A stretch of 64,000 nt of DNA from a bacterium (GTDB taxonomy: Bacteria; Patescibacteriota; Gracilibacteria; JAHISY01), in the NCBI GenBank assembly GCA_021779375.1, contig JAJYAT010000006.1:33515-97514 (forward strand), written 5' to 3'. Below the pieces are notes generated by a model. It was not told where the DNA came from. It searched no databases and saw only the letters and a program-made list of their open reading frames with translations. A program made the translations under genes and the position numbers. Shown piece by piece: positions 1,455 to 33,533 of this stretch. The first letter of the stretch is position 1; each line of letters opens with the position of its first letter.

Positions 1455-3587
1455 GTGGACGCTGCGCTCAAAAAAATTATCGAGCAAGTGAAAAGTTTCG
1501 CACCGGCGGCAGATTTTGCGAAAATCGAGGCGGCGTATGATTTCGCGAAAAAAGCGCACGCTGGTCAGAAGCGTTTTTCGGGTGAACCGTATTTCGTGCA
1601 CCCGGTCGCGGCGACACTCAATTTGCTGACGCTGCATCCTGACGACGACACGATTATTGCCTGTCTATTGCACGATGTGATTGAAGACACGGAGACCGAT
1701 CTTGCTGCTATCGAGGAGAAATTCGGATCGACGGTCGCGAGTCTCTGTCTTGATATGGAGAAGCTTGGCACGGTGCGTTATCAGGGTCAGGAACGGCAGA
1801 TTGAGAATCTACGCAAAATGTTCGTCGCGATGGCGCGGGACATTCGTGTCATTTTCATCAAGCTCGCCGATCGGCTGCACAATATGGAGACGATTGAGCA
1901 TGTGCGTCCAGACAAGCAAAAACGCATCGCGAAAGAAACTCTGGAGGTCTACGCACCGATTGCCGCTCGACTCGGTCTATTCGAATTCAAGGCGCGACTG
2001 GAAGATCTCGCGTTCAAAACTTTGCATCCGGAGGAATTCGCCAAAATTCAAAAGTCACTCGCCGGTAGTGCCATTGGTCGCAAAAATTTCATCGAGACAA
2101 CTAAAAAAAAGCTGCAAACGATTCTTGCGGAAGCGGGCATCACGGCGGAAGTGACCGGTCGGACGAAGCACCTTTACTCGATTTGGCGCAAGCTCGAACT
2201 CAAGCATTACGCTTCGATTGACGAGATTTACGATTTATTTGCGCTGCGTGTCATCGTCGATTCGACCGAAAAATGTTACGCCGCGCTCGGCACGATTCAC
2301 AACCACTTCACGCCGCTCTCGAACCGCTTCAAGGATTTCATTGCCGTGCCGAAACCAAACGGTTACCAGTCGCTGCACACGACGGTCATCGGACTCAATC
2401 GTGATTCGCCGACCGAGATTCAGATTCGGACGCACGCGATGCATGAGCAGGCGGAGCGCGGTGCGGCGGCGCATTTCGTTTATTCCGAAAGGAAACAGTC
2501 AGTCACCGCCGAAGAGTCGAAATTAAAGTGGATTCGCGGCTTGGTCGAATTGCATGAATCGATGCAGGATAATTCGGAATTTATTTCCTCGCTGTCGAAC
2601 GACATTTTCGAAGATCGAATTTTCGTGCTTACGCCGCGCGGCGATGTCTTCGATTTGCCAGCGGGCGCGACGCCGATTGATTTCGCTTATGTGGTGCATA
2701 CCGAGATTGGTCACCACTGCATCGGCGCAAAAATTAACGGCAAGATTGCGAAGCTCGATGCCGAATTAAAAAATGGCGAAGTCGTCGAAATCATCACCAG
2801 GAAAGACGCGAAACCAAACCGCTTCTGGCTTTCTTTCGCCAAGACCACTTCCGCGAAATCCAAAATTCGCGCTTATTTCGCCTCACTCGGTCGCAATGAA
2901 AATGTCGCGCTCGGCAAGGATTTGATCAACAAAAAACTGGCGCGTCTCGGCAAGGCACAGCTCGACGCCGACTTTTCGATTCTCAAAAATTACAAGAAGC
3001 AGAATTTATCCAAGAGAGATCGTGAAGCTTTACTCGAGCGGATTGGTAATGGCAGTGTTTCGTCGTCGGCAGTCGTGAAGGATTTGCTCGAGCTGGACGA
3101 ATTTGCCGTGAAGAAATCCCAGAAAAAGCCGGTGGCGTCATTGCAAGCTGAACACAAGAAGGACGAAATTTTGATCGAAGGTGTCAACGGGATTGCGACA
3201 AAATTGGCAAAGTGTTGCACGCCGAAGCCTGGTGACGAGATCGTGGCAGTGATGAGCCGCGCGGGTGCGACGATTCACCGTAGGGATTGCAAACAGATCG
3301 TGCGTACCGCCGACGAGCGCAAATTGCGCGCGCAGTTCGCGAGCGATGTGAAATCTCATCTCGTCAAAATCGAAGTCACTGCCAAAAATCGGGTTGGCAT
3401 GCTGCACGACATCGCCGGAGCGATTGCAGAAATGCAGGTCAATATCGCCGATTTGAGTCTCAAAACCAGCGACAAACACGAAATCATTCACGAGCTCACA
3501 ATCGAAGTCGAGGATCTCGAGCAGCTCGAAAAATTGCTCGGTCAGCTCGAGCGAATTAGCGGAATCACGCGCGCCGTTCGGATTTGA
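1455..3587 (+). CDS. relA: Bifunctional (p)ppGpp synthetase/hydrolase, RelA/SpoT family
   Basis: 710 aa, GTG start. HD hydrolase motif LLHDVIEDT, synthetase region YSIWRK...GYQSLHTTV, TGS-like region (VLTPRGDVFDLPAGATPIDFAY) and a C-terminal ACT-like domain. Confidence 0.9.
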   Translation: MDAALKKIIEQVKSFAPAADFAKIEAAYDFAKKAHAGQKRFSGEPYFVHPVAATLNLLTLHPDDDTIIACLLHDVIEDTETDLAAIEEKFGSTVASLCLDMEKLGTVRYQGQERQIENLRKMFVAMARDIRVIFIKLADRLHNMETIEHVRPDKQKRIAKETLEVYAPIAARLGLFEFKARLEDLAFKTLHPEEFAKIQKSLAGSAIGRKNFIETTKKKLQTILAEAGITAEVTGRTKHLYSIWRKLELKHYASIDEIYDLFALRVIVDSTEKCYAALGTIHNHFTPLSNRFKDFIAVPKPNGYQSLHTTVIGLNRDSPTEIQIRTHAMHEQAERGAAAHFVYSERKQSVTAEESKLKWIRGLVELHESMQDNSEFISSLSNDIFEDRIFVLTPRGDVFDLPAGATPIDFAYVVHTEIGHHCIGAKINGKIAKLDAELKNGEVVEIITRKDAKPNRFWLSFAKTTSAKSKIRAYFASLGRNENVALGKDLINKKLARLGKAQLDADFSILKNYKKQNLSKRDREALLERIGNGSVSSSAVVKDLLELDEFAVKKSQKKPVASLQAEHKKDEILIEGVNGIATKLAKCCTPKPGDEIVAVMSRAGATIHRRDCKQIVRTADERKLRAQFASDVKSHLVKIEVTAKNRVGMLHDIAGAIAEMQVNIADLSLKTSDKHEIIHELTIEVEDLEQLEKLLGQLERISGITRAVRI

Positions 3588-4338: not shown

Positions 4339-5015
4339 GCGCCGATTTTATCCCAATTTCGAGTCGCCGAGTCGACACGCGAGTTTTTTTCCGCCGCGTT
4401 TTCAGAAATTTCGAGCAGAGATTTTTCCGCGGTGGTGAAAATCTCTGGGTCAGTTTCGAGTCGCAGAATTGTCGCTAAGTCGTTTTCAAGCAAAAAGCGA
4501 AAGAACTTTTTTTCACGGACGGCTTGATTTTCACCGATTGCGAAAAAGCCGAGAATCGCCAGGATCTTGGCGAAAAAGGCGATTTTGATTAGTTGGAGTT
4601 TGGACTTAGTTACAGAGTTAACCCTCGAGATATCTCGGGGGTTAACAGTTGGCAGAAGCATGACGAAGTCTTGGAAGATTTGGTAAATGCGCGGCAGCGC
4701 TTTTTCCGGTGGCGCGAGATTCAAGATCAATTCACTCGCGGCGAAAGCGGCGCGCAGTACGGAGAGACTTTTCGACTCGAAGGCGGAAATCGGACTAGCG
4801 TCAGTCAATAAAAAAAGCTCGCCGCTGCGGCGGTGCAGTCGCAAATTCGTCTCGCCAAAAAGCTCGAGGCTGCCGCCTTTGCGCGATTTGGTTTTCTTGA
4901 CGCCTTTCGCGAGGACCGAGATTACGCCGAAGTCTCGAGAGAGGATTCGTAAAATCCGATCAGCCTCACCGAAATTTTGTTTTTTCAGAACGAAACCGGC
5001 AGTTTTGAATTCCAA
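4335..5015 (-). CDS. recO: DNA repair protein RecO
   Basis: 226 aa, TTG start. The N-terminal OB-fold region AGFVLKKQNFGEADRILRILSRDFGVISVLAKGVKK is typical of RecO. The stop overlaps the lgt start by 4 nt. Confidence 0.75.
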   Translation of the reverse strand: MEFKTAGFVLKKQNFGEADRILRILSRDFGVISVLAKGVKKTKSRKGGSLELFGETNLRLHRRSGELFLLTDASPISAFESKSLSVLRAAFAASELILNLAPPEKALPRIYQIFQDFVMLLPTVNPRDISRVNSVTKSKLQLIKIAFFAKILAILGFFAIGENQAVREKKFFRFLLENDLATILRLETDPEIFTTAEKSLLEISENAAEKNSRVDSATRNWDKIGA

Positions 5016-27193: not shown

Positions 27194-27238
27194 AATTTTA
27201 CTCGAAAAAAGTAGAATCTTCGCACATCTAAAATTTAT

Positions 27239-27313
27239 TGGGGTGTCGCCAAGCGGTAAGGCAGCGGTTTCTGGAACCGCCATGCGGGGGTTCGAATCCC
27301 TCCACCCCAACCA
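27239..27313 (+). tRNA. tRNA-Gln (anticodon CUG), CCA encoded
   Basis: Acceptor TGGGGTG/CACCCCA (U1-A72, as in bacterial tRNA-Gln), anticodon stem GCGGT/ACCGC with loop TTCTGGA, T arm GGGGG-TTCGAAT-CCCTC. The antisense ORF translation MGWRDSNPR is the usual tRNA artefact. Confidence 0.85.
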
Positions 27314-27448
27314 ACACGAGCAGCTATGCTCGACTCACTTGCCCTGGGTGTGTGGATTAAGAACTGATTAAATTCTTGGAAATCTAAAACTAGAATATTC
27401 AGATTAACTGAGGTTTTTTGGAGTAAAATTCTACAAATTTTAAATACT

Positions 27449-29329
27449 ATGCAGAATTTATCCTCTAAGCTTGCCGCACTCCTAAAAAAGAATCCTCGCT
27501 TTCTCGATCAAGAGGGCGAGCTGCTGAAAAGTGCTGTAATCGATCAAGCGTGGAAAGCAGATCATGCGTTAATCGAATTAATTTTGGAAGATAAAGAAAT
27601 TAAGGCTAAGTTTTTTGGCGAGATTAAAGGTTGCTTGGTTTTCAACACGCCAAAGTTTGTAGACTTTGTGCAGGATAAAAATTTTCTCGATGATTCATGG
27701 ACGAAATATAAAAACAAAGTGGGTTTGAATATCCGCGATAAATTTTTACAAGAACGCGGCGAGGTCGCGTTGGTTTGGCCATACAAGGATTGCGTGTTGG
27801 AAGGCGGGATGACAAGTGAAGAGGATGAGCGGAAGGAGATTTTTTTCAATGAGGTATTGGCTCAAGATGAGATTGACCGCTTACTAGATCCGAAGGTTCT
27901 GGTGAATTGGGTGAGGCATACGAAAAAAGGATCGGAAAAAGTAACGGAATTAAAGCGCGGTGAAGATGGCACACTGAAAGAGAATTTGATTATCAAAGGG
28001 AATAATTTACTGGCATTGCACAGTCTGAAGGGTCAATTCGCTGGCAAAGTGAAGTTGATTTATATCGATCCGCCGTACAATACGGGAAATGATGGCTTCA
28101 AATACAACGATAACTTCAATCACTCGACCTGGCTGACTTTCATGCGGAATCGGTTGATGGCGGCGAAGGATTTACTACGAGATGATGGGGTGATTTTTAT
28201 GAATATTGATGACGATGAGTGCCATTACCTGAAGGTATTAGGGGATGATGTGTTTGGTCGAGAAAATTTTATAGCAAATATTGTATGGCAGAAGAAATAC
28301 ACAGTTGCTAACGATGCAAAGTATTTTTCGGATAATCACGATCACATTTTAGTTTTCGCAAAGAAAAAAGAATTTTTCAAAATTGGAGGAATTACTAGAA
28401 CTGATGAGCAAAACGAAAGATATCACAATCCAGACAATGACCCAAATGGTTCATGGATGACGCAGCCGTTACACGCCAAGAGTGGGAATGTCAGTGAGTT
28501 TGAGTTTATTTTTAGAAATGGAACCAAATGGGAGCCGCCAAGGGGAACCTTTCCAAGGTATTCAAAAGCGAGCCTAGAAAAATTTGAGTCACAAAATATG
28601 ATTTGGTTTGGGAAAGATGGCACCGCTGTTCCAAGACTTAAAAAATATTTAAAGGACATGGGTGATGTAACGCCTGCCACAATTTGGCTTCACTCCGATG
28701 TTGGTAGTAACGATGAAGCCAATAGAGAATTAAAACTTTTAATGGAGAAAATGGTTTTTTCCACACCAAAGCCTGAAAGACTTTTGCAAAGAATCATTGA
28801 ACTTGGCTCTGATGAGAGCGATATTATTTTAGATTTTTTTGCCGGCAGTGGTACATCTGGTGCAGTCGCGCACAAGATGAATCGGCGATATATTTTGATT
28901 GAGCAGATGGATTATATCCGCGACTTACCGGAATCACGTTTAAAAAAAGTCGTTGCTGGCGAGCAAGGCGGTATTTCCGAAGCAGTCGGTTGGAAGGGCG
29001 GCGGGGATTTTATTTATTGCGAGTTGGCGAAGTGGAATGAAAATTTTGTTGAGCAGATTCGTAACGCGAAGGATACAAAAGCACTTTTGAAAATTTGGGA
29101 GGAGATGAAGGATCCGCAGAAGAGTTTTCTAAATTACAATGTGGATTTGAAGCAGCAAGACGCGGCGATGGAGGAATTCAAAACTCTTTCGCTTGAAAAA
29201 CAGAAAAAGGTTTTGATTCACTTGCTCGATAAAAATCAGCTTTATGTGAATTTAAGCGAGATCGAGGACACAGATTACGCTATTTCCCCTGCGGATCAGA
29301 AATTGAACGGGAAGTTTTATAAAAGCTAA
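27449..29329 (+). CDS. mod: Type III restriction-modification system methyltransferase (Mod), N6-adenine type
   Basis: 626 aa. Motif IV DPPY (IYIDPPYNTG, nt 28067-28078), motif I-like FFAGSGTSG near the C-terminal third (beta-class order), and adjacency to res. Confidence 0.9.
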   Translation: MQNLSSKLAALLKKNPRFLDQEGELLKSAVIDQAWKADHALIELILEDKEIKAKFFGEIKGCLVFNTPKFVDFVQDKNFLDDSWTKYKNKVGLNIRDKFLQERGEVALVWPYKDCVLEGGMTSEEDERKEIFFNEVLAQDEIDRLLDPKVLVNWVRHTKKGSEKVTELKRGEDGTLKENLIIKGNNLLALHSLKGQFAGKVKLIYIDPPYNTGNDGFKYNDNFNHSTWLTFMRNRLMAAKDLLRDDGVIFMNIDDDECHYLKVLGDDVFGRENFIANIVWQKKYTVANDAKYFSDNHDHILVFAKKKEFFKIGGITRTDEQNERYHNPDNDPNGSWMTQPLHAKSGNVSEFEFIFRNGTKWEPPRGTFPRYSKASLEKFESQNMIWFGKDGTAVPRLKKYLKDMGDVTPATIWLHSDVGSNDEANRELKLLMEKMVFSTPKPERLLQRIIELGSDESDIILDFFAGSGTSGAVAHKMNRRYILIEQMDYIRDLPESRLKKVVAGEQGGISEAVGWKGGGDFIYCELAKWNENFVEQIRNAKDTKALLKIWEEMKDPQKSFLNYNVDLKQQDAAMEEFKTLSLEKQKKVLIHLLDKNQLYVNLSEIEDTDYAISPADQKLNGKFYKS

Positions 29330-29343
29330 AGCTTAATTAAAGC

Positions 29344-30360
29344 ATGATTATTAAAAATCATCCAAGTCGTTATCACCAGCGCAGAGAAGAGCTGATGATA
29401 AAAAAATACAAAAGTATTTTTGAAGATTTTGTTAATGCTCTAGATGAAGCTTTGGAAACTTTTAATGTTTTTTTTACATTAGGGAAAGACGAGAAAAAAC
29501 CAAACCAGCTTCTTTTTTGTCACATCGTTAATAATTTTGATAGTTTTATTAATAAAATCTACAAGGAAATAGTTTCCGATAATCCTGAGCTATCGAAGGA
29601 ATATTTTAAAAGAAAAAGGAATTTAGAAGATAAAGCAACACTCCAAGAAATCATCGCTATCGAGGAATATGGCATAAGAGCATGGATAAAAGAGGTCGCA
29701 TTAGAGCAGGCGGAAGAAGATATTAAAAATAAGAGGCATGCTCAGAAATTAGCGGCGCTGACTAAGAATCTCAAAATGCCGAAACTCTATGTCTGTCTTT
29801 CCGGTACGGGTAACACTTCAAGTGGTTGCCTAAAAAAAACACCTAGCAAAATAAAGAGCGTGAACCATAAAACAAATTCTGAAGAATTAATTGGCTTTGC
29901 TGATGTTTTGTACGAAAAGAGAAATGCCATTACTCACAATAGAAATATGTATCAAAAAAAAGTAATTCAAAGATTAAATCAAGAATGGAAAATCAATATT
30001 AATTCTGCATCAATAATTGTTAAAAGAGATTCCATAAAATCAGTTATTAGATTTTATGCTTCTGCTTGTTTAGAAATGATTAGCCTATTAAAAACAATAC
30101 CATTGGTTCAAGTCAAAAGTGATTTTTTGAATTTAAAAGATTTTAAACCAATAAAACATATCTCAAATATTTTAATTAGCGGAAGATGGAGTAAGTTTTC
30201 ACAACGAAGTCAAAAAACGTTCACTTATTCCGACTATAGAAATTTTTTTCCTAAAGCCTCCGAATCAACAATAAGAAGAGATATTAAATCCCTTAAAAAA
30301 GATGGAGTAATAACAGAAAAGTCTAAAAATGGTAAGAAAATATTATATGAAATAACATGA
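29344..30360 (+). CDS. Uncharacterised protein with Rx4H (HEPN-type) motif and C-terminal winged-helix, embedded between mod and res
   Basis: 338 aa. The motif EKRNAITHN has R193-H198 at nt 29920-29937. The C-terminus ESTIRRDIKSLKKDGVITEKSKNGKKILYEIT resembles a DeoR/wHTH. There is a 14-nt gap after the mod stop and an ATGA overlap with the res start. The ORF itself is secure; the functional assignment is weak. Confidence 0.5.
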   Translation: MIIKNHPSRYHQRREELMIKKYKSIFEDFVNALDEALETFNVFFTLGKDEKKPNQLLFCHIVNNFDSFINKIYKEIVSDNPELSKEYFKRKRNLEDKATLQEIIAIEEYGIRAWIKEVALEQAEEDIKNKRHAQKLAALTKNLKMPKLYVCLSGTGNTSSGCLKKTPSKIKSVNHKTNSEELIGFADVLYEKRNAITHNRNMYQKKVIQRLNQEWKININSASIIVKRDSIKSVIRFYASACLEMISLLKTIPLVQVKSDFLNLKDFKPIKHISNILISGRWSKFSQRSQKTFTYSDYRNFFPKASESTIRRDIKSLKKDGVITEKSKNGKKILYEIT

Positions 30361-32954
30361 CCAAATTCCTTTACGAAGAATACGACATCCTTTCCAAAAG
30401 AATCTCGAAAGAAATTCCAGCTTTCATGTCCGACAACCTTAGCCAAAAATTCTCCATTCGACCTTATCAAGTCGAGACCTTTGCTCGTTTCTTCGATTAT
30501 CTAAAAAACTACGAGGAGAAAACTTTACCGATCCACCTCCTTTTCAACATGGCCACCGGCTCGGGCAAGACACTCATCATGGCTGGATTGATTCTCTACC
30601 TTTACCAGCAGGGCTACCGCAATTTTCTTTTCTTCGTACACTCCAACAACATCATCGAAAAAACCAAAAATAATTTCCTCACCAAAGAATCGAGTAAGTA
30701 TCTTTTTGCCGAGAAGATTATTCTCGATGGAAAAGTGGTGAATATCGAGCAAGTGGCGAACTTCGAGGGTGTGAATTCGCAAAACATCAACATTTGCTTC
30801 ACGACTATTCATCAGCTTCACTACGACTTACACAATGTGAAAGAAAATGCGATTACTTTTGAAAACTTTCGCGAACACAAAATTGTTTTACTCTCTGATG
30901 AAGCGCATCACTCTCAGGCGACAACGAAGCAAAAAATGACCTTAGGTGAAGCATTGGAAAAACCGAGCTGGGAAAATACTGTCGAAAAGATTTTGCAGCA
31001 AAACAAAGCCAATTTGCTTTTAGAGTTCACCGCTACGCTCGATTTTCTCAATAAAAACATTGTGGAGAAATACGAGCCGAAGATTATTTACCGCTATGAC
31101 CTGAAAGAGTTTCGCAGTGACGGCTACTCCAAAGAGATTGACCTTTTGCAATCAGACTTTGAAGAAGAAGACCGGATTTTGCAGGCAGTGATTTTGAGTC
31201 AGTACAGACAAGAACTTGCCGGCAAACACAAAATCAATTTGAAGCCGATCATTCTCTTCAAAGCACAAAAAACTATCGAAGAATCTAAGCAGAACCAAGC
31301 AAAGTTCGACGGAATTATTGAAAATCTGTCAGTCAAAGACATCGAGCGTATTCGCCGTAAATCCCAAATCGAACTTATTCGGCAAGCTTTTCGCTTCTTC
31401 GCCGAAAACAAAACTACCGATGCGCTACTCGTAAAAATCCTCAAGCAAAACTTCTCACCTAATAAATGTCTTAATGTAAATGAGGAAAATCTAGATAAAA
31501 AAACTCTTAAGAAGCAAGATCGCCAAGAATTGATCTCTCAGCAACGTCTTTTGAACTCACTCGAAGACAACGATAATCAGATTCGCGCTATTTTTGCGGT
31601 ACAAAAACTCAATGAGGGCTGGGATGTTCTCAATCTTTTTGATATTGTCAGATTATACGAAACACGCCAAAGTGGCGGACGAGTCACCGCCCCTACTACG
31701 ATCGCCGAAGCGCAACTTATTGGACGTGGGGCAAGATACTTTCCCTTTTCTCATGAAGCCGGTGATGACAAATATAAGCGTAAATTTGATAAAAATTTAG
31801 CGAATGAATTGCGTGTGATAGAAATGTTGCACTATCATAGCATCAGCGACCATCGCTACATCGCCGAGCTGAAAACCGCACTAAAGAAGGAAGGTTTAAT
31901 TGACGACGATGAAATTACAAAAGAACTAAAGCTCAAAGAAGAATTTAAGAAGACTGAATTCTACAAAACAGGAATAATTTACAAAAACGAAGCTGTCGAG
32001 AAAAATAAACGTAAAATTAAGTCTCTCGCCGATCTGGGGGTAAAAAGTAAGAACATTTCTTACCTTATTCATTCTGGTGAGGGGAAAGATGCAGCTGTTT
32101 TCGAAGATTTCGCCCTAGAGGTTCAGTCGGTAGTAAAAACCAAAGATGTTTCCCTGAAAGAGATACCCGTTCATATTATTCGCTCCGCGCTTGCACGCAA
32201 CGATTTTTATCGTTTTATTAATCTTAAAACTGAATTTCCGATTTTAAGCTCAATTGCTAACTTTATCAAAAGTAAGGACTTTTTAGCCGGACTCTCGATC
32301 ACTTTTAGCGGAATGACCGACACTCTCGCTAATTTGCATAACACTTATTTATTCGAAGGTGCCAGTAAACTCTTAGCAGAGATCGAGCGGGAAATTAAGT
32401 CAAATTCTTTTGATTATGAAGGTGGCGAATTTCAGCCAGCCTACATTCACGAAGTTTTCAAAGATAAACTGATTAAGATGCGGCAAGGCGATACCCGCGC
32501 TGATGGACAGTTTAATTTTGTAAAGAATAAGGATTGGTATGTTTTCGACAATAATTACGGCACGAGCGAAGAAAAAAGTTTAGTAGAGTTTATGGCGCGC
32601 CAGATTGACGAAATGTCACCTGACTATAAAAAAGTCTATCTAATCCGCAATGAGCTACATTTTAAAATTCATAATTTTAAAGATGGAGAAGCCTTTGCTC
32701 CCGACTTTGTGCTTTTCTTGATTCAAAAAAATGGAAAGCAATTAACCTACCAAATTTTTATTGAGCCTAAGGGCGGTCATTTGGAGGATAAAGATAGATG
32801 GAAAGAGGATTTTCTTTTAGAGATTAGAGAAAAATTCAAGAATCGCGTTTTGACCTTCAAAGAATCTACTAAGTACAGAATCGTCGGTGTGCCGTTCTAT
32901 AAACAAGAGGAAGAGAATAAATTTAAAGAAGAATTATTAGTCTCAATTAAATAA
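30357..32954 (+). CDS. res: Type III restriction enzyme, Res subunit (SF2 helicase-nuclease)
   Basis: 865 aa. Helicase motif I MATGSGKTLIMAG, motif II LLSDEAHH, later helicase motifs (LNEGWDVLNL, IGRGAR), and a C-terminal PD-(D/E)xK-like region (PDFVLF...FIEPKG). Confidence 0.9.
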   Translation: MTKFLYEEYDILSKRISKEIPAFMSDNLSQKFSIRPYQVETFARFFDYLKNYEEKTLPIHLLFNMATGSGKTLIMAGLILYLYQQGYRNFLFFVHSNNIIEKTKNNFLTKESSKYLFAEKIILDGKVVNIEQVANFEGVNSQNINICFTTIHQLHYDLHNVKENAITFENFREHKIVLLSDEAHHSQATTKQKMTLGEALEKPSWENTVEKILQQNKANLLLEFTATLDFLNKNIVEKYEPKIIYRYDLKEFRSDGYSKEIDLLQSDFEEEDRILQAVILSQYRQELAGKHKINLKPIILFKAQKTIEESKQNQAKFDGIIENLSVKDIERIRRKSQIELIRQAFRFFAENKTTDALLVKILKQNFSPNKCLNVNEENLDKKTLKKQDRQELISQQRLLNSLEDNDNQIRAIFAVQKLNEGWDVLNLFDIVRLYETRQSGGRVTAPTTIAEAQLIGRGARYFPFSHEAGDDKYKRKFDKNLANELRVIEMLHYHSISDHRYIAELKTALKKEGLIDDDEITKELKLKEEFKKTEFYKTGIIYKNEAVEKNKRKIKSLADLGVKSKNISYLIHSGEGKDAAVFEDFALEVQSVVKTKDVSLKEIPVHIIRSALARNDFYRFINLKTEFPILSSIANFIKSKDFLAGLSITFSGMTDTLANLHNTYLFEGASKLLAEIEREIKSNSFDYEGGEFQPAYIHEVFKDKLIKMRQGDTRADGQFNFVKNKDWYVFDNNYGTSEEKSLVEFMARQIDEMSPDYKKVYLIRNELHFKIHNFKDGEAFAPDFVLFLIQKNGKQLTYQIFIEPKGGHLEDKDRWKEDFLLEIREKFKNRVLTFKESTKYRIVGVPFYKQEEENKFKEELLVSIK

Positions 32955-33107
32955 GAAGTGCAGTCCAATTTCTTCTTTATAATTCCAATCCCCCATGCCA
33001 ACCAAAACCACTCAAACCTTTCTCAAAGTCAGCTCAGCTGGCTAATGGATTCATAGAAAATTAATAGTGCATGCTATAATTTACCTACATTCTTAACCTT
33101 TGCACTC

Positions 33108-33356
33108 ATGAATAGATTTTTGGAATGCGGTGGACCCGGTGGATCTCCAGAATGGTTGCACGCGTTTTTGCCGTTCATGATTCCCCTGCTTTTGTGGAGT
33201 CTGTTTTGGAAAGGACTCGCACTCTGGCACGCCGGGAGAAAAGCTCAGCCCTGGTGGTTCGTAATCCTGCTGGTGGTCAATACTGCCGGCATTCTTGAGA
33301 TTGTCTATCTTTTCTTGGTTCTCAAGATCAAACTTGAGAAACTTTTTAAAAAGTAG
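33108..33356 (+). CDS. Small two-TM membrane protein (DUF5652-like)
   Basis: 82 aa. WKGLALWHAGRKAQPWWFVILLVVNTAGILEIVYL matches my memory of DUF5652, a family common in CPR genomes. Confidence 0.5.
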   Translation: MNRFLECGGPGGSPEWLHAFLPFMIPLLLWSLFWKGLALWHAGRKAQPWWFVILLVVNTAGILEIVYLFLVLKIKLEKLFKK

Positions 33357-33421: not shown

Positions 33422-33533
33422 AAGTCTCGTAGTTTATGGAACATGAAACATGGAGCTTGGAACATAGAACAAGCTATTTTGTTATGTGTTCCATGCTATG
33501 TGCTCCATGTTTCTGATTTTGGGCGCGAGACGA
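33422..33533. repeat. Long imperfect hairpin with GGAACAT / ATGTTCC-type repeats between convergent genes (possible bidirectional terminator or small RNA)
   Basis: Pairing segments: GTCTCG 33424-33429 with CGAGAC 33526-33531; GAAACATGGAGC 33445-33456 with GCTCCATGTTTC 33502-33513; GGAACATAGAACA 33459-33471 with TGTTATGTGTTCC 33480-33492 (imperfect). A T-rich run follows the right arm. Confidence 0.5.

Follow-up and report, generated by a model that had tools for sequence, protein, structure and literature searches.

A HEPN-like, winged-helix protein gene as candidate captured cargo in a Type III restriction–modification operon

At least 16 HEPN clades, together with RhuM and Doc, are embedded in restriction–modification (R-M) operons (PMC3710099), and HEPN-type accessory toxins in such operons are already well described, the idea having been in the literature since 2013. 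The experimental paradigm is PrrC-EcoprrI (PMC3710099; PMC12707154). Here, we describe a 338-aa gene, called X below, that lies between the mod and res genes of a Type III R-M operon in a bacterium of the Gracilibacteria (GTDB lineage Bacteria; Patescibacteriota; Gracilibacteria; JAHISY01). The operon is part of a stretch of 64,000 nucleotides, referred to as the window (GenBank assembly GCA_021779375.1, contig JAJYAT010000006.1, positions 33,515 to 97,514 of the forward strand), and all coordinates given without a locus label are those of the window. At a probability of about 0.6, we read X as a captured single-gene cassette of toxin or abortive-infection type, in which a divergent HEPN-type putative RNase is joined to a winged helix-turn-helix (wHTH), and as accessory cargo rather than a subunit of the Type III system.

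Several described systems come close to this arrangement. PrrC, encoded in the EcoprrI Type Ic locus, parallels what we propose for X, as it is a HEPN-type R-x4-H protein inside an R-M operon whose presumed role is that of a second, RNA-directed line of defence. It differs in having an N-terminal ABC ATPase, in belonging to a Type I system and in an interaction with that system that has been shown experimentally, whereas X has a wHTH, sits in a Type III operon, has relatives that are not linked to R-M and carries no ATPase of the PrrC/RloC kind. The HEPN families RiboL-PSP (PF18735) and MAE_28990 (PF18737) and the Abi2/AbiD/AbiF clade share with X an R-N-x3-H signature where helix 3 ends, an acidic position within helix 2 and a long insertion between helices 2 and 3; RiboL-PSP and MAE_28990 have links to ParB, R-M and defence loci (PMC3710099). 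X departs from the RiboL-PSP-HEPN families in that its relatives match them below the gathering score, that it has no match of its own and that it has no L-PSP or ParB partner. Fusion of a HEPN domain to a wHTH within R-M operons is known from the EC042_2821 family, which overlaps DUF3644 (PMC3710099). In that family, however, the wHTH is N-terminal and is accompanied by restriction endonuclease and Zn-ribbon domains, and we could not relate its sequence to that of X. RhuM (PF13310) is regarded as a predicted toxin carried by R-M loci (PMC3710099). It occupies the same mod–res slot as X in two related operons but is an unrelated protein. The Dazbog protein DzbB, which acts with the DUF262 protein DzbA in abortive infection, is the most frequent PADLOC match among the relatives of X (9 of 52, best 1.3e-4), but these matches are sub-threshold, none of them comes from X, and the window holds no DzbA or DUF262 partner.

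Gene X and its protein family

The operon and the parts of X that matter for the argument are located as follows.

27449-29329, + strand: Type III mod, 626 aa, intact (Pfam PF12564 and PF01555; PADLOC MTase_III, 3.9e-186)
29344-30360, + strand: gene X, 338-aa HEPN-like/wHTH protein (open reading frame (ORF) with ATG start; alternative start at 29395)
29344-30108, + strand: N-terminal all-alpha domain of X, aa 1-255, a HEPN-like putative RNase (AlphaFold2 model)
29539-29541, + strand: codon of D66, the acidic residue of the FDS motif in helix 51-79 (at least 90% conserved)
29920-29937, + strand: R193-N-A-I-T-H198, the R-x4-H dyad at the C-terminal end of helix 182-198 (alignment and model)
30169-30357, + strand: C-terminal winged helix-turn-helix of X, about aa 276-338 (HTH_DeoR, Foldseek)
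30357-32954, + strand: Type III res, 865 aa, intact (ResIII, 2.5e-31; PADLOC REase_III, 1.4e-147)

X is a protein of two domains, an all-helical N-domain of ~250 aa and a C-terminal winged helix. Its ATG follows the TAA stop of mod after a spacer of 14 nt (AGCTTAATTAAAGC), its TGA overlaps the ATG of res as ATGA (30357-30360), and the codons of R193 (29920-29922) and H198 (29935-29937) lie within the motif YEKRNAITHN. A preliminary description of the window, made by a model from the letters and their reading frames, had given the same ORF with both junctions, the same dyad within EKRNAITHN and a correct C-terminal peptide. It had also named the neighbors as Type III mod and res, which Pfam, the sequence motifs and the PADLOC run it had proposed bear out, both genes being intact, and it had likened the C-terminus to a DeoR-type winged helix. 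The last point holds as well: Foldseek finds local matches of the C-terminus to DsrD, S25e, MarR and HxlR at a probability of 1.0, and HTH_DeoR is matched in 7 of the 52 aligned family members. A profile match to TubR (E 0.067) was also found.

Searched against Pfam, NCBIfam, PADLOC and PHROGs, X belongs to no curated family above threshold. The single near-threshold curated match is HTH_DeoR at residues 305-324 (E 8.8e-4, just under the cut-off), and PHROG 428, 'replication initiation protein', matches the wHTH region at E 3e-4. Full-length homologs, with 38–46% identity, number 11 in a set of 5.8 billion clustered proteins; they have 47 invariant columns in common, including the motifs QLLFxHxxNxFDS and YEKRNAITHN; N194 is one of the invariant residues. 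A profile searched exhaustively against 1.84 billion representatives yielded only 60 relatives. About 16 of these are X-like with a C-terminal wHTH, and about 40 are stand-alone proteins, 220-260 aa long, in which only the N-domain is matched (profile positions ~18-250). Relatives are absent from 185,579 GTDB species genomes and from IMG/VR, and tblastn of X and three stand-alone relatives against plasmid and phage collections gave no match. The family is new to the curated libraries, small and very rare, with ~60 representatives among the 1.84 billion and none in reference genomes, plasmids or phages.

In an alignment of 52 sequences (A2, mean column identity 24%), R193 and H198 are the sole invariant columns, and F65, D66, H132, K135, G184, D187, Y190, F237 and Y238 are conserved at 90% or more.

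An alternative in-frame start of X exists at M18 (ATG at 29395), with GAGAAGAG just before it. It is the choice of the gene caller on an identical NCBI contig (L021, GCA_021833845.1), and several X homologs have similarly short N-termini; if M18 is the start, the gap between mod and X may be 65 nt instead of 14. No terminator-like sites and no promoter-like sites above background were predicted between mod, X and res. Co-transcription of the three genes is plausible, and X and res are probably coupled in translation, judged solely from the ATGA overlap.

A remote link of the N-terminal domain to HEPN

The AlphaFold2 model of the N-domain (residues 1-255), made with 52 sequences, has a pLDDT of 93.8 and a pTM of 0.89. 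The model of full-length X is mediocre (pLDDT 69.5), and Foldseek recovers only the C-terminal winged helix from it. The N-domain is modeled with two long helices at residues 9-46 and 51-79, the latter with F65 and D66, an insert of ~100 residues with short helices (80-181), a helix at 182-198 that ends exactly at H198, a loop, a short helix and a helix at 228-248. The dyad thus lies at the end of a helix, as it does in HEPN RNases, whose motif is R-x4-6-H. In HEPN domains, an acidic residue is conserved in helix 2, and inserts between helices 2 and 3 are common (PMC3710099). D66 matches the position of that helix-2 acid, and the modeled topology fits all three published HEPN features at the level of secondary structure.

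The recurrent non-HTH profile matches of the family all point to HEPN or defence models. HEPN_RiboL-PSP (PF18735) is found in 5 of the 52 members; the best match has an E value of 1.7e-4 and scores 22 bits, under the cut-off of 28.4. In the stand-alone relative P0025, nearly the whole domain is covered, with residues 28-217 aligned to positions 36-181 of 191 of the profile. HEPN_MAE_28990 (PF18737) is found in one member and PADLOC RTasHEPN in three, all sub-threshold. When the N-domain model is compared with the Protein Data Bank (PDB) by Foldseek, HEPN/MNT toxins make up five of the top 35 entries. We consider it likely that the N-domain is a very divergent HEPN-type RNase domain, as predicted from these features, and the HEPN link of X is in any case remote.

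The preliminary description had taken the R-x4-H signature as a mark of HEPN RNases such as those of the Abi_2/AbiD type. Membership of Abi_2 specifically falls away, as the Abi_2 profile (PF07751), with E limits of 0.1-1, matches neither X nor a single one of the 52 members, and PADLOC finds no AbiD or AbiF.

Foreign composition, variable contexts and a reused slot

X is compositionally foreign to mod, res and the host. Its GC content is 30.1% (GC3 25%), compared with 40.6% for mod and 38.9% for res (GC3 44% in both) and ~50% in the host flanks, which argues for an acquisition separate from that of mod and res. The same tendency is seen throughout the family, with X-family genes being AT-richer than their own flanks in every locus examined. 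The mod-X-res block as a whole is a low-GC island (27239-33100, ~40% compared with ~50–55% in the flanks), where GC falls right after a tRNA gene:

27239-27313, + strand: tRNA-Gln(CTG) (ARAGORN and Rfam), just upstream of the low-GC R-M island

The island extends from ~135 nt after this gene to about 33.0-33.1 kb, and no directly repeated, att-like copy of the 3' end of the tRNA was detected around it.

Genomic contexts of other family members were taken from the contigs of 8 members and from scans of metagenome, viral and GTDB collections, and the rarity of the family kept the number of recovered loci small. In ~10 contexts with readable flanks, no other X-family member has mod or res beside it. 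Some neighborhoods are of defence type: one homolog lies beside KilA-N, MutH, GmrSD and methyltransferase (MTase) genes (L003), another near T5orf172, DUF4268 and PDDEXK genes (L007), and a third precedes a gene of the PLD (nuclease) family. On two contigs (L001 and L002), the homolog follows a Y1 (IS200-type) transposase gene with housekeeping genes around. Elsewhere, homologs are found 40 nt after a tRNA gene (L005, 3796-3867), after polA (L008), 31 nt after metK (L019, 3-857), after three ORFs without assignment and ~110 nt before a SAM riboswitch (L006, 3330-3447), and divergent from a GTPase gene, which we take to be lepA (L016). The two SAM-related neighborhoods, in L006 and L019, may be orthologous loci or a coincidence.

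Three of the copies bear marks of a discrete cassette. The homolog P0010 in L007 lies between direct repeats of ~125 nt with 80% identity (3250-3398 and 4520-4667), each of which is an imperfect palindrome (AACAGGGGTATATACGG...CGCATATACCCCAAACGTT); there is a 23-nt inverted repeat, and the boundary heptamers GTTGTAC and GTACAAC are complementary. In L003, a 30-nt direct repeat (19 nt perfect) is found at 91-120 and 1198-1227, with the downstream copy overlapping the stop codon. In L016, a perfect 28-nt inverted repeat (276-303 and 1484-1511) brackets the homolog, and small hairpins lie immediately beyond either arm. The repeats on the flanks of X homologs have no match in Rfam. The L007 copy recalls an integron cassette, in that a single ORF is followed by a ~125-nt imperfect palindrome with complementary heptamers, as in the R' and R'' of attC, and HEPN cassettes are known in integrons, including PDB 3jrt (PMC3710099). 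However, the likeness is confined to one locus, no integrase is present on the 4.8-kb contig of L007, and the copy in the window has no such site.

In L001 (7550-8978, and likewise in L002), the gene of the 146-aa Y1 transposase ends 11 nt before the homolog P0007, on a contig of 230 kb. The family member may here be a passenger of an IS200/IS605-like element.

The settings of the stand-alone relatives would suit a toxin or an effector of defence. The gene of P0026 comes after one for an AAA_21 ATPase, and P0072 is found on an integrase-bearing element (serine and tyrosine recombinases), with clustered C5 methylase, SNF2, NOV_C and Vsr genes directly downstream. P0025, P0031, P0053 and P0072 are each preceded by a conserved ORF of 60-66 aa that overlaps or abuts them, so that the small ORF and the stand-alone N-domain are arranged like a toxin–antitoxin pair. 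The wHTH fused to the N-domain in the X family may stand in for this separate small partner. The small ORFs themselves lie at 5255-5446 in L012, 590-772 in L013, 205-393 in L015 and 6820-7020 in L025; they have the consensus ...GPFDPL..FN.LN.L..KG.L...E... and no family assignment.

The mod and res genes on either side of X are a genuine and intact Type III pair. In mod, the Pfam domains TypeIII_RM_meth and N6_N4_Mtase and the motifs DPPY and FAGSG are present, and in res the motifs GSGKT and DEAH and a PD...EPK nuclease motif; the pair thus has the MTase with its N-region, and the SF2 helicase with PD-ExK, by which Type III R-M membership is judged. The mod protein can be aligned with its relatives end to end, to the last residues (50–52% identity). 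The res protein aligns with its relatives from residue 1, and its start is therefore sound. As mod reaches its last residues and res its first in these alignments, neither gene has been damaged by an insertion.

The two closest res relatives found (54–55% identity) come from the metagenome-assembled genomes L010 and L011, and both have genes between mod and res. In L010 (3830-5257), these are a 149-aa helical ORF without assignment, which comes directly after mod, and a full RhuM (PF13310). In L011 (4714-6003), RhuM is truncated, its match being limited to positions 1-152 of the 252 in the profile, and no long ORF occupies the next ~580 nt; the gene has therefore probably decayed. The cargo begins 2–14 nt after the mod stop in all three operons. 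No relationship was found between RhuM and X, and hhalign of the X family with the 149-aa ORF of L010 was negative. Hence, the mod–res junction of one clade of Type III systems is a reusable cargo slot, with RhuM in two relatives and X here, which bears on the assembly of defence islands and on layered, DNA-then-RNA immunity.

All seven contigs with this exact mod also carry X, with identical DNA from one population, and the mod-X-res arrangement is seen in this population only. Recurrent synteny in independent lineages, for which the preliminary description had proposed a search, was not found. Its suggestion of mod-HEPN/wHTH-res as an architecture in its own right is not supported either, given that there is no second instance, that X is compositionally foreign and that the closest operons carry RhuM. 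The arrangement defines no new type of restriction system.

Competing explanations and flanking features

The PrrC-EcoprrI precedent and the general proposal for R-M-linked HEPN genes (PMC3710099, PMC12707154) invite the explanation that X is a guardian, bound to Mod/Res, silent in the intact complex and freed to act as an RNase once an anti-restriction factor from a phage has put the enzyme out of action. X is embedded in the operon with an ATGA overlap that couples it to res, it is present in every contig of the population that carries the operon, and the stand-alone relative P0072 lies beside an R-M-like cluster. We still regard a guardian role as improbable: no family member elsewhere adjoins mod or res, and an ancestral dedicated interface with Type III subunits is therefore unlikely. 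Moreover, X is without the ABC ATPase module of PrrC, its composition indicates a separate acquisition, and the relatives of the Type III system work with RhuM, or with nothing functional, in the slot. More doubtful still is a role as a DNA-binding, controller-like regulator of the operon or island, with the wHTH on an operator and the N-domain for sensing or oligomerisation, which the preliminary description had also raised and for which we found no support. The C-terminal wHTH is DeoR-like and the place of X just before res recalls C proteins, but the sole invariant residues, R193 and H198, are in the N-domain and none are in the wHTH, which ~40 relatives lack altogether. C proteins are of the Xre-type HTH and ~80 aa long, unlike X with its 338 aa, a DeoR-like wHTH and no HTH_3 match; in addition, no operator-like palindrome stands out beside X, and the family has no R-M linkage elsewhere.

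X could also be a selfish gene, an addiction toxin or mobility protein that serves its own spread or retention, with no antiviral role or link to restriction. Family members exceed every host context in AT content, long direct or inverted repeats bracket the L003, L007 and L016 copies, a Y1 transposase gene adjoins the homolog in L001 and a tRNA gene that in L005, and the wHTH region has the PHROG 428 match. We think this as improbable as the guardian role, since no recombinase-like domain or nuclease of mobility was detected and several contexts of X-family and stand-alone members are of defence type. It is also not exclusive of a defence reading, as addiction and abortive infection overlap. 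Finally, the top full-length Foldseek matches of X are the Fic-plus-wHTH proteins 7xux and 3zec (E 0.06-0.13), PADLOC SoFic is matched in 4 of the 52 members, and RhuM and Doc toxins share the same slots in R-M operons (PMC3710099), all of which would suit a Fic/Doc (AMPylating) toxin with a C-terminal wHTH, like SoFic/SO_4266. This identity has next to no probability. The matches to 7xux and 3zec have a TM of ~0.15 and an rmsd of >20 Å, and they vanish when the N-domain alone is searched, which returns no Fic protein, and therefore stem from the wHTH; the motif HxFx(D/E)GNGR is absent from X.

Capture of a toxin or abortive-infection cassette is thus the explanation we favor. The gene anatomy, the domain structure, the invariant residues, the foreign composition, the variable contexts and RhuM in the equivalent slot are computed results. 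On this explanation, X would belong to a rare, horizontally mobile family, one copy of which was caught in the mod–res junction of an acquired Type III island beside tRNA-Gln. Transcribed with mod and res, and probably coupled to res, X would be made whenever the restriction enzyme is made. The protein would be kept inactive, with the wHTH either sensing nucleic acid or exerting autoinhibition or autoregulation. Upon infection, RNA would be cut by means of R193 and H198, with D66, H132 and K135 as probable contributors, and the resulting halt of translation would provide a second line of defence if DNA restriction fails. We infer the RNase activity, its trigger and its outcome, as well as a functional link or cross-talk with restriction. 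An RNA-acting backup effector in an R-M operon, as the preliminary description had proposed, is not a new concept, given the HEPN clades already known from such operons (at least 16; PMC3710099). If both the HEPN assignment and the defence role are true, an unannotated toxin family joins the accessory effectors that ride in R-M operons.

A number of results weigh against this explanation. None of the HEPN models in Pfam, NCBIfam, PADLOC or PHROGs recognizes X itself, and every HEPN match among its relatives lies below the curated threshold. In the Foldseek search of the N-domain against the PDB nothing is significant (best E 0.66), and the HEPN/MNT toxins (8yuf, 7ae6, 7ae2 and 7ae9) rank 5-35, their E values being 1.5-3.3 and their TM ~0.25. 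The structural comparison proposed in the preliminary description upholds the wHTH and an all-helical N-domain, and it gives the N-domain no significant PDB match. Profile searches of PDB sequences give no HEPN chain, and the sequence and profile searches of the PDB returned only designed armadillo repeats, C/EBP and TubR. The R-x4-H motif arises in 30% of shuffles of X, and for this reason the argument for it is one of conservation; D66 is placed relative to R193 and H198 at the level of secondary structure, and their proximity in space is putative. Of the HEPN claim as first made, what stands is that the dyad is the conserved core of the N-domain at the position of the HEPN motif, and what does not is recognition of X by HEPN models or by a significant structural match. 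As for the capture, no att-type or terminal repeats and no cassette ends were detected around X or the island in the window, and the seven contigs with mod and X represent one population and hence provide no empty-site control. Selection for joint expression might explain why X fits the res ATG so exactly, in which case a functional link would follow.

Taken further, the same observations would make the X family a new class of autonomous HEPN-wHTH Abi effectors, carried by attC-like or inverted-repeat-ended cassettes that insert frame-tight into defence operons and, in the present operon, turned into a Type III-linked guardian whose RNase is freed when Res/Mod is inhibited. We regard this as a long shot; if true, X would be the first PrrC-like guard of a Type III system.

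Two inverted repeats are seen at the edges of the island. One, of 17 nt and 94% complementary (AATTTTACTCGAAAAAA / TTTTTTGGAGTAAAATT), has its arms at 27194-27210 and 27414-27430 and brackets tRNA-Gln, with the right arm ending 19 nt before the ATG of mod. The other, of 27 nt and 78% complementary with a 15-nt loop (33445-33513), lies between a DUF5652 ORF (33108-33356) and a convergent MFS transporter gene and is probably a bidirectional terminator.

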